Source of the DNA: an uncultured delta proteobacterium
GTDB taxonomy: Bacteria > Myxococcota_A > Polyangia > Polyangiales > Polyangiaceae
Direction of reading: 5' to 3'
Assembly (NCBI GenBank): GCA_963841435.1
Contig: CAWJCS010000005.1
Span: 1,088,001-1,152,000 of the forward strand
Length of the DNA: 64,000 nucleotides
The notes beneath the pieces were generated by a model. The model was not told the origin of the DNA and searched no databases. It was given only the letters and a program-made list of their open reading frames with translations. Each line of letters begins with the position of its first letter. The first letter of the stretch is position 1. This document shows positions 1-60,986 of this stretch, in pieces. The translations under genes were made by a program, and so were the position numbers.

Positions 1-1274
1 GCCCCCATCACGGCAATCGAGGCCGTGGGCAGCGCCAGACACGCGTCCGGCTCGAAGGCTGGGCCACACATCGCGTAAAGGCCGGCGCCGTAGGCCTTTC
101 GCACGATCACGCTCAGCTTCGGCACCGTCGCTTCACTGACGGCCGCCACCATCTTCGCGCCCGCACGGATGATGCCCTGGCGCTCCACCTTCGTGCCGAT
201 CATGAAGCCTGGCACGTCGGCGAGGAAGAGCAGCGGCACGTTGAACGCATCACAGAGCCAGACGAAGCGCGCCGCTTTGTCCGCGCTGTTGACGAACAGC
301 ACGCCGCCGAGGTGCTTCGGCTGATTGGCCACGATGCCGACGACACGCCCCTCGATGCGGCAAAAACCCGTGATGAGCTCCTTGGCGAAGCGCGCCTTGA
401 GCTCGAGAAAGCTATCCTCGTCGACGAGCGCGTCGATCACCTGGCGCATGTCGAACGCCTTGTTTTCGTCGACGATGACGACGTCCTCGATACGCCGTGC
501 GTCGGGCTTCGGGGCCCGCGCCGGGGCCACGGGCGGGTCCGCGTCGCAGGTCTGCGGCAGGTAGCCGAGGTAGGCGCGACCGAACGCGATCGCCGCGTCT
601 TCGTCGGGCGAAAGCACGTCGCCACAGCCCGAAACGGCCGTGTGCATCTTCGCTCCCCCCATCTCCTCGAGCGTCACTTTTTCGCCGATCACCATCTCCG
701 CCATGCGCGGCGACCCGAGGTACATGCTCGCATTGCCGTCAACCATCGCGACAACGTCGCAGAAAGCCGGAATGTAGGCGCCGCCCGCCGCCGATGGTCC
801 GAACAGCAGGCACACCTGCGGGACGCGCCCGCTCAGCGCGACCTGATTGAAGAAGATGCGCCCCGCGCCGCGCCGGCCGGGAAACATCTCCGCCTGGTCG
901 GTGATGCGTGCGCCCGCCGAGTCGACCAGATAAAAGAGCGGGCAGGCGAGCCGCGACGCGGTCTCCTGGATCCTCAAGATCTTTTCGACGGTGAGCTTGC
1001 CCCAGGAGCCGGCCTTCACGGTCGAATCGTTCGCCATGACGGCCACGGTGCGCCCCTCGAGCGTGCCGGTGCCGGTGATCACGCCGTCGGCGGGCAGCTC
1101 GCCGTCCATCGTGCGCGCGAGCAGCCCGTCCTCGACGAACGAGCCGGGGTCGAACAGACGGGCGATACGCTCGCGCGCGAAGAGCTTGTTCTGTGCGCGG
1201 TTCTTGTCATGGTACTTCGCCGCACCGCCGGCGCGGGCCAGAGCAGAGCGCTCGCGAAGCTTGGCGTCATCCAT
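1..1274 (-). CDS. acyl-CoA carboxylase carboxyltransferase (beta) subunit, 3' end runs off the window
   Basis: Manual translation from ATG 1274 (MDDAKLRERSALARAGGAAKYHDKN...) gives carboxyltransferase motifs: ANDSTVKAGSW, DSAGARI, GPSAAGGAY, EGRVVGIVANQP, LADVPGFMIG, RKAYGAG. The frame stays open to position 1. Confidence 0.92.
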   Translation of the reverse strand, partial: MDDAKLRERSALARAGGAAKYHDKNRAQNKLFARERIARLFDPGSFVEDGLLARTMDGELPADGVITGTGTLEGRTVAVMANDSTVKAGSWGKLTVEKILRIQETASRLACPLFYLVDSAGARITDQAEMFPGRRGAGRIFFNQVALSGRVPQVCLLFGPSAAGGAYIPAFCDVVAMVDGNASMYLGSPRMAEMVIGEKVTLEEMGGAKMHTAVSGCGDVLSPDEDAAIAFGRAYLGYLPQTCDADPPVAPARAPKPDARRIEDVVIVDENKAFDMRQVIDALVDEDSFLELKARFAKELITGFCRIEGRVVGIVANQPKHLGGVLFVNSADKAARFVWLCDAFNVPLLFLADVPGFMIGTKVERQGIIRAGAKMVAAVSEATVPKLSVIVRKAYGAGLYAMCGPAFEPDACLALPTASIAVMG

Positions 1275-1353: not shown

Positions 1354-2238
1354 TCAGGACCCCGCCGCCATCAGCTCACGGAGCTTGGCCTCCACCTCGG
1401 CGAGGTGATCCGAGGAGTAACCCACGCTGACGTCGCGCACCGTCCCCTGCCGATCGAGCACGAAGAGCGTGGGCAAGGCCATGGCGCGGTAGGCGCGGCT
1501 CGTCCCTCCGTCCGGATCGGAGGCCACGGCGTAGTCGATGCCGAGCTCGACGCTCGCCTGAAGCGCGGACTCGGCCGGGTCGGTCGTGATGCCGATGACC
1601 GTGAGCCCACGCGCGCCGTAGCGATCGTGCCACGCGTTCAAGGTCGGAATCGCGAGGCGACAGGCGACGCACCACGACGCCCAGAAGTCGATGACCACGA
1701 CGCGCCCGCGCAGCTCGGTGAGATCGCTCGGCAAGCTGCCCTTGACGGTAGCGAGCGTTTGCCAGCGCGGCGCCGGTGCTCCGAGAAACTCCGAGCGCAT
1801 GAGCGCGTTCTGGTCGGGCCGTGCGTCGAGCGGCACGGCGAACAACCGCTCCGTCCCCGCGCGCAAAAGGCCGACGGGAAGACGCTCGCCGGGGTGGTGG
1901 AGCGACACGATGCGCACGACGTCCGCCGGGCCGAGCACGTTCTCGGCGGCCACGCTGACGATGACATCACCCGCCTGCAGACCGGCGCGTTCGGCGGGCG
2001 AGCCGCGAAGCACATCGCGAACGAGGACGCCCGGCTCACCGGGCGGGACGGCCGCGAGCTCGACGCCGAGCCATCCCGGCGCATCGGGATCGACCGCAGC
2101 GGCACCGGGCGCCGACTCGGGCGCCCTCCCGGCAGACATCGACGCCATCGGCATCGGCGACGCCGCGGCCACGGGTGGCGTCGCCCGACCGGCGCTGCAG
2201 CCGAGCGTGGCACCGAAGAGCGCGAAGAGCGCCGGCAT
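1354..2238 (-). CDS. PDZ domain + TlpA/redoxin family thiol-disulfide oxidoreductase, probable lipoprotein
   Basis: PDZ-like WLGV...VRDVLRGSPAERAGLQAGDVI, then DFWASWCVAC (CxxC) and ALPTLFVLDRQG. Lipobox-like TLGC follows the ATG at 2238. The start codon is uncertain. Confidence 0.85.
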   Translation of the reverse strand: MPALFALFGATLGCSAGRATPPVAAASPMPMASMSAGRAPESAPGAAAVDPDAPGWLGVELAAVPPGEPGVLVRDVLRGSPAERAGLQAGDVIVSVAAENVLGPADVVRIVSLHHPGERLPVGLLRAGTERLFAVPLDARPDQNALMRSEFLGAPAPRWQTLATVKGSLPSDLTELRGRVVVIDFWASWCVACRLAIPTLNAWHDRYGARGLTVIGITTDPAESALQASVELGIDYAVASDPDGGTSRAYRAMALPTLFVLDRQGTVRDVSVGYSSDHLAEVEAKLRELMAAGS

Positions 2239-2344
2239 GCGTTCGAGCCCGGCGACGACGCGATGAGCCACGCCTTCGTGGTACCATGTTGGCCTGATCC
2301 GCGCAGCCCGACACCACGTTCTGCGCGGCGTCGCCACCGCCACC

Positions 2345-2800
2345 GTGCTCGCCGCGTGCAGCCCAGCCCCGGCGCCGCCACCACCGGTGCGAGCCCCGGT
2401 GGCGCACCCCGCGCCGCGCCCGACGTACGCTCGATTCGAAGAAGCGCTCGCGTGGCCGCCGATCGACAGCGCTCCGTTCGAGGTTCAAGGTCACCCGCGC
2501 GCGCAGCCGCTCGCCCTCACGCACGTGAGCCCCGACGCTCGCGAAGCGTACGGAGCGCTCGTCACCGACGGCGCCCTGCCCGACGGTTCCGTCGTGGCGA
2601 TGGAGCACCGCGGCGCCGACGGAGTCACTCGCGGCACCGTCTACGTCATGGAGAAGCGCGACGGCGCGTGGAGCTACCTCGAGGTCGATGCGCGGGGCGG
2701 GGTGCTGGATCCGGCCCCCACGCGGTGCCCGATCTGCCACGCCGGCGCCGTCGCCGATCACCTCTTCGGACCGCCGCGTCGGAAACCGCCGCGGGAATGA
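2345..2800 (+). CDS. cytochrome P460 / cytochrome c'-beta family heme lipoprotein
   Basis: LAAC lipobox, LPDGSVVAME, VYVMEKR..WSY, and a C-terminal CPICH heme motif followed by DHLF. Confidence 0.65.
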   Translation: MLAACSPAPAPPPPVRAPVAHPAPRPTYARFEEALAWPPIDSAPFEVQGHPRAQPLALTHVSPDAREAYGALVTDGALPDGSVVAMEHRGADGVTRGTVYVMEKRDGAWSYLEVDARGGVLDPAPTRCPICHAGAVADHLFGPPRRKPPRE

Positions 2801-2871
2801 CTCTCGGCCTGAGGGCGTTTTCCCGAAGAGACCGGCTGGCGCCCATGGCGACCCCGGGCGGGCGGTCTTAC

Positions 2872-2911
2872 GTACAAAAAGAGAAGGCCTGATGGCTGTA
2901 CCCATCAGGCC
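2872..2911 (-). terminator. intrinsic terminator (minus strand)
   Basis: Perfect 10-bp stem GGCCTGATGG/CCATCAGGCC (2886-2895 and 2902-2911), followed on the minus strand by TTCTCTTTTT. Confidence 0.8.
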
Positions 2912-3055
2912 CCAAGGACCGATCCAGCGGAAAAGAAGCGGAAGGAAGACGAAGCAGTAAGGAAGCGAAAGGGAGGCGTCTTTGTGGGGCGCCTCATACG
3001 GGATCTCGCAGCGCACGGCGAGAAAAGAAGCGAGGCTTGCACGCCTCGATAAGTG
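2876..3055 (-). ncRNA. candidate small regulatory RNA (~180 nt)
   Basis: Lies between a sigma54 promoter and an intrinsic terminator. Contains three hairpins and a pyrimidine-rich tract, with no convincing ORF on this strand. Confidence 0.6.
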
Positions 3056-3065
3056 CCCCACTAAC

Positions 3066-3081
3066 TGCAGGGTCCGTGCCA
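3066..3081 (-). promoter_or_regulatory. sigma54 (-24/-12) promoter
   Basis: Minus strand reads TGGCACG-GACC-CTGCA against consensus TGGCACG-N4-TTGCW, with exact GG-N10-GC spacing. Confidence 0.7.
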
Positions 3082-3336
3082 CCCTGGAAGGGTTTCGCAT
3101 TTCCCTAGTATTTTCAGCGAGATGTACCTGGAACCGGTGCCGGATGGGCACTCTTCGATCGCTCGGCCCCTGGTTCTCGTGTCAGGGGGGTCCAGGGGGG
3201 CATGAAATCTTTTCCGAGCCCGCTTGCAGTGACGCTGGCGCGCGCCCCCTGCGCGCCACCTGGGGATAACCACCGGCCCCCCCGCGGAGGTGAGCCCCCA
3301 GCCGAGCGCACCGTGCTATGAGTCGCCCCCTTCCGA

Positions 3337-3410
3337 GCGCCCGTAGCTCAGCTGGATAGAGCACCGGTCTACGGAACCGGTTGTCGAAAGTTCGAATCTT
3401 TCCGGGCGCG
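3337..3410 (+). tRNA. tRNA-Arg(ACG), CCA not encoded
   Basis: GCGCCCG/CGGGCGC acceptor stem, D arm, anticodon arm CCGGT-CTACGGA-ACCGG, T arm GAAAG-TTCGAAT-CTTTC. Confidence 0.97.
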
Positions 3411-3830
3411 CCCGTAGCCACCAGGTGCGGCAGAGTCGACCCCCGTTGGCTCGACTCCTCGCCGATTCGACCTCCGTTCCGATCCGTGCGGCTCCGCAGC
3501 TCGACATGCGGTGACCACCGTCAGCGGGCCGACGGTTTCGAATCTTTCCGGGCGCGCCAGGCCACAGGGTCCGGCAGGGGCGGCCTCTGCAGCTCGACTC
3601 CTCGCCGATTCGACCTCCGTTCCGATCCGTGCGGCTCCGCAGCTCGACATGCGGTGACCAGCGTCAGCGAGCCGACGGTTTCGAATCTTTCCGGGCGCGC
3701 CAGGCCACAGGGTCCGGCAGGGGCGACCTCTGCAGCTCGACTCCTCGCCGATTCGACCTCCGTTCCGATCCGTGCGGCTCCGCAGCTCGACATGCGGTGA
3801 CCAGCGTCAGCGGGCCGACGGTTTCGAATC
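3391..3830 (+). repeat. tRNA-linked tandem repeat: 3 units (146/143/143 bp) plus an 8-bp partial fourth, each starting with the tRNA-Arg 3' end
   Basis: TTCGAATCTTTCCGGGCGCGCC occurs at 3391, 3537 and 3680, and TTCGAATC at 3823. Units 2 and 3 differ by about 2 nt. Confidence 0.95.
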
Positions 3831-3901
3831 GCGGGCATCGGCGTCGCGGCGTGTGGCCTCGCCGTCGAGCAATGCGGCTTCCCCCGCGTACCGCGACTTC
3901 G

Positions 3902-4927
3902 CTAGTTTTTCGGCAGCCAGGCCTCGATGAGACCGACCTCCGCGTCGGTGAGAACGCTGGCGGGAATTGCGGGCATCCACTCGGTTCGCTCCGACACGGG
4001 GATGGTGCCGTTGTTCGTGTGCCCGTCGCGAATGACGGCGAGAAACGCAGCGCCCTGCACATCGAAGGGCACCGAGTGGGCTACCATCACATAAGCATTC
4101 GTCGTTCCGCCGCGGCCTTCGGGACCGTGACAGTACCCGCAGTAGTCGGCGTACAGGTCCGCCCCCGTGGTCGGCTGGGGGAAGCCGCCGAGCCAAGTAT
4201 AGATGTCGTCGAGGATCGCGCTGGAGATGAGCTTCGGATCGACGGCCGGCATCGGATCTTTGTAGGGCACGATGGGCGTGTCGTCGCCGTTCTTCACCAT
4301 GAAGTCGAAGAGCTCTCGATTGGGGTGCCGGATTTCCGGCCCTCGGTCCTCGATGCCCTCGCCGTTGTCGCCGTGGCAGTTGCCGCAGCCGTAGTCGGGA
4401 TCGTTCCAAGCGCTCGTGCGATCCGTCGCGGGTTGCGCGCCGGCGGCACCCGCCGCGGCGGTGCCGGCGGCACCCGCCGCGCCTCCCGCCGCCAGGCCGC
4501 CCGAAGCGCCAGCGCCCGCCCCGCCGCTGGTCGCTCCGCCGCTGTTGGCTCCGCCGCTGCCGGCCCCGCCGCCGCTGGCCCCGCCGGTGCTGGCTCCGCC
4601 GGTGCTGGCTCCGCCCGCGGCCGCCCCAGTGCCCGCCGAGCCGCCGAGCCCACCGCTGTCACCACCGTTCGAGCCGCCAACGCCTGCCGCGGCGCCGGTC
4701 GCTCCCGTGAAGTCGCCAGCGGTGCCCGCCGTCGCGCCGGTGCTCGACCCCGCCGCCGCTCCGCCCGCGCCGCCGATCGCCGCCGCTCCCGCGCTCGCGC
4801 CCGGGGGCTCGGTCACTGCGTCGTCGCCCGAGCACGCGGGCAAAGCGCCGACGGCGAGTGGCCCGAGCGCGAGCAAGGCGGCGCGCAGCGAACGACGGGA
4901 GATCGGTCTCGGGGCGGTATCCTTCAC
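3902..4927 (-). CDS. diheme c-type cytochrome lipoprotein with Gly-rich linker
   Basis: GTG start after an AGGAG RBS, LPAC lipobox, Gly/Ala linker, and two CxxCH motifs (CGNCH, CGYCH), each followed by a distal MP. Confidence 0.85.
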   Translation of the reverse strand: MKDTAPRPISRRSLRAALLALGPLAVGALPACSGDDAVTEPPGASAGAAAIGGAGGAAAGSSTGATAGTAGDFTGATGAAAGVGGSNGGDSGGLGGSAGTGAAAGGASTGGASTGGASGGGAGSGGANSGGATSGGAGAGASGGLAAGGAAGAAGTAAAGAAGAQPATDRTSAWNDPDYGCGNCHGDNGEGIEDRGPEIRHPNRELFDFMVKNGDDTPIVPYKDPMPAVDPKLISSAILDDIYTWLGGFPQPTTGADLYADYCGYCHGPEGRGGTTNAYVMVAHSVPFDVQGAAFLAVIRDGHTNNGTIPVSERTEWMPAIPASVLTDAEVGLIEAWLPKN

Positions 4928-17205: not shown

Positions 17206-17406
17206 GGAACGGAAACGCTTCGGGCTTCTCCCTCTGAAACCCGCGACACGAGCCCAAACCATGCCCTAGGGGTTTTCCTCCAACAACCCCCAATTCGCGC
17301 CCCTTTTTTGTGCTTCTTTCGCGCTTCCTTCGCCATTCGGCGCCCCGCCCGCGTGCCCCGACGAGGCGACCTCGACGCTGACCCCGTGGCGTGCTGTCAT
17401 TTCAAC

Positions 17407-55240: not shown

Positions 55241-55358
55241 ACCCGGCAGCGTCCTACTCTCCCACACAGTTGCCCGTGCAGTACCATCGGCTCCGAGAAG
55301 CTTGACTTCCGAGTTCGGGATGGGATCGGGTATGGCCTTCTCGATATAGCCACCGGAA
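55241..55358 (-). rRNA. rrf: 5S rRNA
   Basis: Conserved CCCGATCCCATCCCGAACTCGGAAGT, GATGGTACTG and GGGAGAGTAGG. Ends are approximate. Confidence 0.96.
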
Positions 55359-55587
55359 ACGTTGGGCATCCAGCTCAGCAGATGAAGGTGCTGCGCTCGG
55401 TTCGTCCGTGCTCACTCGCGCGCTCCGCGTCGAATCTCGAGGATTCGAAAGGGAGAACGCGGGCGAACTCGTGGGTCACCGGCCGCGACGCTCGCGCCTA
55501 TCGTCTTGCGACGACAACGCTCGAACGCGCAGGGGCGACCACCGCCCGGACTCCGGGCACTAGCTACAATGTTTGCCTTAGAGAATT

Positions 55588-58592
<3,005 letters not shown>

Positions 58593-58892
58593 TAATCCCT
58601 AAGGCACGCATCGAGCTGGTACCCGGAGTCCGTATGACGAACTCTTTGATTACCAGCGCAGCGCCGAAACGAAGCCGCTTCGCGCGGTTCTTCTTCGCTT
58701 CGATTGGGAACGGTCGCAGCAGCAAGGGCCTGCTTACGAACCGTCCTCTACCTTCAATCTTGCTAGCTTTGGACGCTTACGTTTCTATTGTGCTTAGAAT
58801 GTCAGAGAACCTTCGAGGCACGTGGCCTCCGCGGCGCTGCGTCCGCGAGCCGAACCTTGCGGTCCGGAGAAGACTTTTTTGGGTATCGGCGG

Positions 58893-58965
58893 TGGAGCTG
58901 ATCGGGATCGAACCGACGACCTCAGGCTTGCAAAGCCCGCGCTCTCCCAGCTGAGCTACAGCCCC
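58893..58965 (-). tRNA. tRNA-Ala(TGC), CCA not encoded
   Basis: GGGGCTGTAGCTCAGCTGGGAGAGC...TTTGCAA...GGTTCGATCC. Confidence 0.97.
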
Positions 58966-58980
58966 GAGGGTGGCTCGAGG

Positions 58981-59054
<74 letters not shown>

Positions 59055-59233
59055 AGGAGGCGGGGCGAAGCCCCGCCGAGAACCTATCCCGGGCAGTCAT
59101 TCTGCCCGCTTCGGTCCTTCAAAACTGAGTCCCATCACCCGCGCATCGAGTCGCTCCGGCTCTTAGCGATCTAGCCGGAGCTTCGCTACGTCGCGGGGCT
59201 TTGACCTAGGTGCCCATCCGAAACCGGATGGTG

Positions 59234-60797
<1,564 letters not shown>

Positions 60798-60986
60798 AGA
60801 TCCTTCGGCAAGCTCGACGGGGTTAGCCGCCGAACCGCCATGTGGCTCGCTATCTTCGAACTCGTTCGTCACGTCCGGGGAGAACGGACGAACGTTTTTT
60901 GTCTACCCGCGCGATTTCTCGCGGGGTGATGGGGCTCAGTTTTCAAGGATCGAGGGGAGAACCGCTCCTCCCGAACAGGGGCGCGG

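Follow-up and report, generated by a model that had tools for sequence, protein, structure and literature searches.

A stand-alone, non-coding small RNA (sRNA) gene of the sigma-54 type very probably lies on the minus strand of the window, the 64,000-nucleotide stretch of DNA analysed here. The sequence-only reading had proposed an undescribed sRNA at this place, and the comparison of homologous loci in the genus lent support to that proposal: a sigma-54 type promoter was found at 41 of 41 loci, a 5' hairpin at 41 of 41, a short invariant motif at 40 and a terminator at 39, and Rfam held no counterpart. Our verdict is that the gene would found an sRNA family that is new, although its kind is known. 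The conservation of its predicted boundaries, promoter, upstream site, motif and terminator is shown by the sequence comparison, from which we infer that the gene is transcribed and that its transcription depends on sigma-54 and an enhancer-binding protein (EBP).

No described sRNA was found for Polyangiales or Sorangium-type organisms in the titles and abstracts that our literature searches listed. The locus would represent a testable and cleanly delimited sRNA gene, complete from activator site and promoter to seed and terminator. It would offer an entry point to the sigma-54 regulon behind the candidate upstream activator site, and also to post-transcriptional control in a genome where neither Hfq nor CsrA was found. 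It could further show how an sRNA can diverge almost wholly and retain an eight-nucleotide motif together with its transcription signals.

Anatomy of the locus

The features of the locus and of the neighbouring genes are the following, in window positions:

3-1274, minus strand: carboxyltransferase gene, named by inspection of the translation
1354-2343, minus strand: gene of a PDZ/thioredoxin TlpA-like protein
2345-2800, plus strand: gene of a cytochrome P460-like lipoprotein of 151 aa with an invariant CxxCH, named from the nearest Atlas clusters
2874-3055, minus strand: predicted sRNA transcript of ~180 nt, its 5' end placed by promoter geometry and its 3' end by the terminator T tract
2874-2913, minus strand: Rho-independent terminator, a 12-bp stem (2913-2884) and T tract, from a terminator scan
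2916-2975, minus strand: largely unpaired C/U-rich tract that is 82% pyrimidine and holds GCUUC repeats (RNAfold and motif counts)
2958-2965, minus strand: invariant octamer CUUCCUUA, candidate seed or protein-binding motif, from a motif survey of 41 RNAs
2973-2995, minus strand: hairpin 3, GAGGCG / CGCCUC, kept in a 9-genome subclade only
3004-3023, minus strand: hairpin 2, UCUCGC / GCGAGA, kept in the same subclade only
3031-3048, minus strand: hairpin 1, 5'-proximal, CGAGGC / GCCUCG with a 6-nt loop (RNAfold)
3066-3081, minus strand: sigma-54 type -24/-12 promoter TGGCACGGACCCTGCA, with GG-N10-GC spacing
3170-3184, minus strand: upstream block 2, TGACA-N6-CCAG, candidate upstream activating site and genus form of the order-wide TGACA-N4-TGTC
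3202-3216, minus strand: upstream block 1, CGGAAA-AGA-TTTCAT, degenerate copy of the palindrome CTGAAA-N3-TTTCAG, candidate EBP or co-regulator site
3337-3412, plus strand: tRNA-Arg(ACG), from a permissive Rfam scan of 2000-4000

The promoter, three hairpins, C/U tract and terminator described by the sequence-only reading were every one recovered where it had placed them. The start of the RNA was put near 3055 from the promoter spacing, and the homologous RNAs at 41 genus loci span 155-258 nt. GCUUC does occur four times, as had been noted (plus-strand GAAGC at exactly 2935, 2951, 2962 and 3027); at least four copies per 182 nt were reached in 22 of 20000 mononucleotide shuffles. Both copies of a repeated 11-mer were also located, at 2930 and 3022. 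The GC content falls to 57-61% in the candidate region against ~70% around it.

The near-consensus promoter claimed for the locus proved sound: TGGCACG-GACC-CTGCA at 3081-3066 has its GG and GC 10 nt apart, as in the consensus TGGCAC-N5-TTGCW. Only 68 matches to the strict form TGGCAY-N5-YTGC were found on both strands of the 7.78-Mb genome, and no other of these 68 sites equalled the candidate locus in the pyrimidine content and the GCUU count of the sequence downstream, where it took first rank. A search for a paralogue in the same genome found none, as a GCUU-rich pyrimidine tract follows this one of the 68 sites and no other. The genome encodes one RpoN (a single PF04552 match, 220 bits) and has 52 PF00158 matches for EBP domains, 40 of them strong at E <=1e-35; no EBP gene (PF00158 match) was located within the window's range on the contig.

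Conservation within the genus

A BLAST search of 40 relatives retrieved only 3 homologues, all of the same genus, and in their alignment the conservation begins at the promoter and ends past the terminator. A covariance model built without the promoter (R1) found 9 strong full-length copies among 47 genus genomes. Covariance-model searching with default filters reached 12 of these 47 genomes and missed most members, and the family was recovered only by combining synteny with filters-off searches, using a second model (R2), of the loci beside the P460-like gene. This gene is present in 44 of the 47 genomes, a tally that includes one genome (G046) whose sequence was not analysed. With the filters off, R2 gave a weak full-length match beside the P460-like gene at 20 of 21 loci, and most of another 13 loci showed such a match as well. 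A 42nd genome (G054) has the composite pattern of palindrome and promoter and also the motif at the same locus, and the sRNA locus is kept in at least 42 of the 47 species of the genus. The RNA subclades can barely be aligned with each other (mean column identity 35%). Since these relatives are kin and not independent, a figure such as 41 of 41 is a measure of conservation and not a count of 41 separate events.

Outside the genus, R2 with default filters found no homologue in 150 other genomes of the family (147 of them from 88 other genera), a weak null because merely 16 candidates per genome were scored. A search for related loci that started from the TlpA-like alignment yielded nothing but generic thioredoxins of many phyla. 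The source is probably a Polyangiales-like myxobacterium, with which the Myxococcota-rich Atlas clusters nearest to the locus, the ~40 EBPs, the genomes of up to 16 Mb among family members and weak matches to a Polyangiales MAG and to Sorangium would agree.

At all 41 genus loci exactly one TGGCAY-N5-YTGC promoter stands directly 5' of the RNA, exact at 34 and with one mismatch at 7. Farther upstream, both blocks are better kept than the body of the RNA, and the conserved upstream block would look like an EBP site, on which grounds we treat it as a candidate. Of the 31 loci at which the palindrome of block 1 could be placed, 29 have its start 130-136 nt upstream of the promoter and the two outliers have it at 120 and 144 nt; the window copy begins 135 nt upstream. 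Block 2, which in the genus reads TGACA-N6-GCCAGG, sits 31-32 nt downstream of block 1. The loci differ in how far the palindrome stands from tRNA-Arg, with distances of 93-213 nt. The tRNA neighbourhood, which the sequence-only reading had taken as a guide to homologues, holds at most genus loci and fails at six, where no tRNA lies within 700 nt; three of these six keep the palindrome at 131-133 nt from the promoter. The fixed promoter distance, the variable tRNA distance and the persistence of the block without a tRNA indicate that it belongs to the sigma-54 promoter and not to the tRNA, and its reading as a tRNA promoter was rejected on these grounds. A composite of palindrome core and promoter matched once per genome in 25 of the 46 other genomes of the genus, each time at this locus, and gave none in the reversed control; the same pattern had 0 matches in 336 genomes from 88 other genera of the family.

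Structure and terminator

RNAfold, run on 3058-2872 of the minus strand, confirmed the three hairpins named beforehand, placing their stems at 3048-3031, 3023-3004 and 2995-2973, and also predicted the mostly unpaired pyrimidine tract and a long stem at the end. Their conservation is uneven. A hairpin beginning at nt 1-10 was predicted in 41 of 41 homologues, with stem sequences that vary between subclades and with modest shuffle z-scores (mean -1.2), whereas the conservation of hairpins 2 and 3, and likewise of the 11-mer repeat, is confined to the nearest 9-genome subclade. Within this subclade, compensatory changes were seen at one pair of hairpin 2 and at the closing pair of hairpin 3. For the terminator, where a 10-bp stem with a U-tract had been claimed, the scan gave 12 pairs followed by CTCTTTTTGT, and compensatory changes occur at 3 of 8 consensus pairs. 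A hairpin and T-rich tail end the RNA in 39 of 41 homologues, and the remaining two sequences ended before the terminator in extraction. Taken as a whole, the RNA folds with unremarkable energy (z = -1.44; 19 of 200 shuffles fold as well), so that structure alone would not suffice to make the case for an RNA gene.

Coding and cis-acting alternatives

It is extremely unlikely that the locus encodes a small protein or is a conserved DNA element that is not transcribed. The window copy does contain a 30-codon ATG ORF, and a long ORF of 371 aa (2036-3151, minus strand) formally spans the candidate; since no ORF is common to the homologues, we regard the latter as an artefact of high GC content. 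The earlier statement that the locus has no credible ORF stands, and a small-protein gene was rejected as a reading: from one to another of the 41 homologues the ORFs change in frame, length and sequence, 19 of the homologues have no ATG at all, the C/U tract has indels of lengths that three does not divide, and none of the ORFs has a Shine-Dalgarno-like purine run before it. Against an untranscribed element, the promoter, upstream site and terminator are kept in register, which argues for transcription. Slightly less improbable, although still very unlikely, is that the conserved sequence acts in cis, either as a 5' leader or attenuator or as promoter and terminator furniture of the tRNA-Arg and P460-like genes. 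Such a role could draw on three order-level loci (L297, L300 and L311) where a same-strand ORF begins 206-255 nt downstream, on hairpin 1, which with the following CUUCUUUUCU also scores as terminator-like, and on the convergent gene, which could share the terminator. However, the gene that follows is convergent both in the window and in the genus as a whole, the T tract is confined to the minus strand, and the upstream block follows the sigma-54 promoter and persists where the tRNA is missing. The candidate RNA runs towards the P460-like gene, with which it is convergent, and away from the divergent tRNA, and hence is a leader of no gene. The P460-like lipoprotein itself had no Pfam match, and the Atlas clusters closest to it consist of cytochrome P460 proteins and are commonest in Myxococcota.

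The C/U-rich tract and the invariant octamer

What the divergent RNAs of the genus share in sequence is chiefly the octamer. CUUCCUUA was found in 40 of the 41 genus RNAs and the 41st has CUUUCUUA. Its main aligned copy is located at +79 to +120, roughly 90 nt from the 5' end, and extra copies occur in a few RNAs. With a mean predicted unpaired probability of 0.70, the octamer exceeds the RNA as a whole, for which the value is 0.46. The C/U-rich body of the 41 RNAs has a pyrimidine fraction of 0.59-0.71, and each RNA carries 3-13 copies of GCUU and 0-8 of GCUUC at variable spacing. One genus homologue shows a tandem expansion of GCUGCUUC. The octamer resembles the anti-Shine-Dalgarno tail of 16S rRNA; the 16S 3' end of this genome reads GGAUCACCUCCUUUCU, with the tail CCUCCUUU. 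The complement of the octamer is UAAGGAAG, or UAAGGAGG if one G-U pair is allowed.

Similar loci across the order

Searching the order for a sigma-54 promoter followed, after 88-120 nt, by CTTCCTTA gave matches in 6 of 250 other genomes versus 5 matches in the reversed control, which by number alone is the level of chance. Five of the six matches are intergenic, C/U-rich and contain GCUU repeats, and the sixth is coding. In four of the five intergenic matches a terminator follows and TGACA-N4-TGTC lies 67-123 nt upstream of the promoter. When this palindrome was searched for together with a sigma-54 promoter 80-110 nt further on, 37 of 251 order genomes had 40 matches between them, spread over 12 families (a tally that includes one genome, G489, whose sequence was not analysed), and the reversed control had 0. 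Among the 30 palindrome-plus-promoter loci listed, automatic criteria classed 12 as sRNA-like and inspection added another 5, which are C/U-rich with an ORF start >200 nt downstream or absent. CUUYCUU was present in 16 of these 17 sRNA-like loci versus 1 of 60 control windows. Represented among the sRNA-like loci are families f1 (a second genus), f3, f8, f9, f18 and f22, to which the CTTCCTTA-pattern matches add f4, and the related module of TGACA-N4-TGTC and sigma-54 promoter stands ahead of similar RNAs with GCUU repeats in at least six other families. One order-level analogue contains five 16-nt tandem repeats.

Ten loci of the coding class begin, by inspection, with signal-peptide- or lipoprotein-like sequences, and include genes of vWA-domain, DUF2330 and beta-propeller proteins. 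Same-sense CUUCCUU was found in the 5' UTRs of two co-regulated secreted-protein genes; these appear by inspection to be orthologous and therefore count as one independent case.

When R2 was run on 19 order-level loci, a single match at E <0.01 was obtained and it was partial. Since the model scarcely recognises these distant RNAs, they are better called look-alikes than proven homologues. Their control region is probably homologous to that of the genus locus, judging from its sequence: block 2 of the genus would share its left half-site and spacing with the order-wide TGACA-N4-TGTC palindrome.

Mode of action

We propose that sigma-54 RNA polymerase would transcribe a trans-acting sRNA of ~180 nt from the minus strand, from ~3055 to ~2876, when an EBP bound at the conserved upstream site, ~90-135 bp upstream of the first base of the promoter, activates transcription. 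The sRNA would consist of a protective 5' hairpin, a mostly single-stranded C/U-rich body and an intrinsic terminator, with the invariant and accessible (G)CUUCCUUA, ~90 nt from the 5' end, as its functional core. This motif may pair with purine-rich Shine-Dalgarno-like sequences of mRNAs, either perfectly or through the form with one G-U pair, and such pairing would block or modulate translation initiation as long as the EBP is active. As a mechanism for the sRNA, base pairing with Shine-Dalgarno-like sites is favoured tentatively, at somewhat short of an even chance. We prefer it as the most economical reading of a single invariant octamer that is accessible and fixed in position.

TAAGGAAG occurs at 13 sites in the genome, one of which is the sRNA gene itself. 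Four of the 12 others lie 4-5 nt before the start codons of plausible genes, which encode a PhnD-like binding protein and a dCMP-deaminase-like protein (an 11-nt match each), a TetR regulator and MurJ. The 11-nt site of the dCMP-deaminase-like gene is not conserved, being exact in 1 of 30 orthologues. The 10-mer CTAAGGAAGC gave 79 matches genus-wide, 26 of them in sRNA genes; no downstream gene family was common to the 20 non-sRNA sites examined (19 of 52 in other genus genomes and the PhnD-like site of this genome). TAAGGAAG-N3-10-ATG is not enriched in the genus, with 92 matches versus 209 in the reversed control (a tally that includes G046, whose sequence was not analysed). An ABC ATPase gene, the sole recurrent gene with this arrangement (four close genomes), was discarded as a target, the site being absent in the genome under study. 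AAGGAAG was not found in the rRNAs. Of the suggestion that the RNA pairs with ribosome-binding regions, then, the Shine-Dalgarno-complementary motif is conserved and predicted to be accessible, but the genus searches yielded no conserved ribosome-binding target with perfect complementarity.

This last result would suit another reading of the same gene, as a protein sponge whose GCUUC, CUUCCUU and CUUAG motifs titrate a protein that binds single-stranded C/U sequences. We consider it possible although rather unlikely, and rank it next after pairing because of the variable multiplicity of GCUU-type motifs and because only motif composition is kept across the order. The motif family (GCUU, GCUUC, CUUAG), present in 3-13 copies of variable number and spacing, suits multivalent protein binding at least as well as a single seed. 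The tandem expansion in one homologue and the five tandem repeats of the order-level analogue point the same way, as do the recurrence of CUUYCUU in the sRNA-like loci across the order and the one independent case of same-sense CUUCCUU in the 5' UTRs of secreted-protein genes. However, no candidate protein emerged for the sponge, and neither Hfq (PF17209) nor CsrA (PF02599) was found in the genome, whose assembly is 95% complete, so that the absence of Hfq from it is not proof. GGA motifs are nearly absent (0-3 per RNA). Moreover, the homologue in one genome (G005) has 0 GCUUC and 3 GCUU, yet keeps a single CUUCCUUA at the same position, a pattern that makes one seed more likely than valency.

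Extended to the order, sequestration would imply a Polyangiales-like class of RNAs with sigma-54/EBP control and GCUU/CUUCCUU repeats, which would capture an RNA-binding protein specific for pyrimidine motifs in the manner of CsrB or CrcZ and would be co-regulated through TGACA-N4-TGTC with genes of secreted proteins and lipoproteins (vWA, DUF2330, beta-propeller). We hold this broader proposal to be distinctly unlikely; if true, it would amount to a new global post-transcriptional regulator pair.

Comparison with known systems

The RNA has no counterpart in Rfam 15: a permissive scan (E up to 10) returned no family at gathering threshold, and the sub-threshold matches on the candidate were noise (17.9 bits against a gathering threshold of 50, and 15.2 against 45). 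Pxr of Myxococcus xanthus is the one characterised sRNA discussed in the available text of PMC5684412 and PMC5568312, where it is reported from Cystobacterineae only. As described there, this myxobacterial sRNA has a predicted sigma-54 promoter, an upstream enhancer-binding region and a multi-stem-loop layout with a terminator-like stem (PMC5684412, PMC5568312), and its gene is flanked by the EBP gene pxrR/nla19 on one side and by an NADH dehydrogenase gene on the other (PMC5568312). As far as these descriptions go, the present RNA resembles Pxr in its sigma-54 promoter, upstream enhancer region and multi-stem layout ending in a terminator-like stem. It differs in lying between tRNA-Arg(ACG) and the P460-like gene with no EBP gene nearby, and in its long C/U tract, of which the available descriptions of Pxr make no mention. 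Pxr has a three-stem-loop fold; for the present RNA three stems and a terminator are predicted, but stems 2 and 3 are not conserved beyond the 9-genome subclade. The lack of sequence likeness to Pxr that had been remarked on was evident here too, the complement of the published SL1 probe having 0 matches in the genome at <=5 mismatches and in 0 of the 41 sRNAs at <=8 mismatches. Identity with Pxr is ruled out by sequence and by genomic context.

The upstream site, with CTGAAA-N3-TTTCAG and the TGACA block in the genus and TGACA-N4-TGTC in the order, could be matched to no known EBP. The CcsR or 'cuckoo' RNAs and RoxS/RsaE are sRNAs with a C/U-rich anti-Shine-Dalgarno seed: they expose one or more pyrimidine-rich motifs that complement ribosome-binding sites, and these motifs are C-rich and placed in hairpin loops. 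The present RNA is set apart from these, as they are generally described, by its mixed U/C motif, its long unpaired tract and the sigma-54 promoter predicted for it, and also by the lack of an Rfam match. Known sponges that the protein-sponge reading would parallel include CsrB/RsmZ, directed at CsrA, and the sigma-54-dependent CrcZ and GlmY, directed at Hfq/Crc and RapZ respectively. The present RNA does not fall in with the CsrB/RsmZ type, given its 0-3 GGA per RNA and a genome where no PF02599 match was found, nor with the Hfq-dependent or CrcZ type, as far as the 95% complete assembly without a PF17209 match can tell; the motifs of CrcZ are CA-rich, in contrast to the C/U-rich ones found here.

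The closest parallels in design are Qrr, GlmY/GlmZ and CrcZ/CrcY, none of which was matched in Rfam by the present RNA at E up to 10. In these systems an EBP site and a -24/-12 promoter precede a short RNA that ends in an intrinsic terminator, and the class has members that act by base pairing (Qrr) and members that sequester proteins (CrcZ, GlmY). Judged by the usual descriptions of these RNAs, the present locus shares their common design of EBP site, promoter, short RNA and terminator.

Neighbouring features in the window

A divergently oriented gene pair lies downstream of the sRNA locus, a tRNA-Arg(ACG) gene lies upstream of it, and the same window carries a complete rRNA operon.

1354-2343, minus strand: PDZ/thioredoxin TlpA-like gene, divergent neighbour of the lipoprotein gene
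2345-2800, plus strand: lipoprotein gene, 151 aa, with an invariant CxxCH
55241-60798, minus strand: complete rRNA operon (16S, tRNA-Ile, tRNA-Ala, 23S, 5S)
59242-60798, minus strand: 16S
58893-59054, minus strand: tRNA-Ile and tRNA-Ala
55587-58592, minus strand: 23S
55241-55357, minus strand: 5S

The 151-aa lipoprotein showed no Pfam match at an E value of 0.001; in the Atlas, the clusters closest to it consist of cytochrome P460 proteins from Myxococcota. The divergent arrangement of the CxxCH lipoprotein and TlpA-like genes was kept in the 28 genus loci checked. A 143-nt unit is repeated in tandem at positions 3391-3830 (3.1 copies, 93% matches), and the start of this array falls within the 3' end of tRNA-Arg(ACG). 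The array looks like either a duplicated tRNA 3' end or the repeated remains of attachment sites left by an integrative element.

Repeat expansions and other sites of the motif

In the order-level look-alike L280 (genome G407), the region about 130-215 nt past the promoter contains two copies of CUUCCUUA at a spacing of 17 nt, together with a 16-nt unit, CAGCCACTCTTATCTT, that is repeated five times in tandem; a terminator scan of this look-alike found none. The 3' part of the sRNA homologue L062 (genome G048) shows four tandem copies of GCUGCUUC at the position occupied by the terminator in other homologues, and the extracted sequence may end before the true 3' end of the sRNA.

Within the window, GCTTCCTT occurs on the plus strand in a short, seemingly intergenic C/U-rich stretch (about 17300-17340) that no strict sigma-54 promoter match placed among the sRNA-like sites. 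In G062, one of five genus genomes without a located sRNA, a CTAAGGAAGC match on a different contig (G062:C102:15547-15556) might represent the sRNA copy of this genome, situated at another locus.

The TGACA-N4-TGTC module upstream of secreted-protein genes

At several loci of order-level genomes (L288, L299, L301-L304 and L308-L310), TGACA-N4-TGTC and a sigma-54 promoter precede secreted-protein or lipoprotein genes, whose products comprise vWA/YfbK-like, DUF2330 and beta-propeller proteins as well as unknowns. Since this module is common to the sRNA-like loci and to secreted-protein and lipoprotein genes, it suggests a sigma-54 regulon tied to the envelope with the sRNA among its members.
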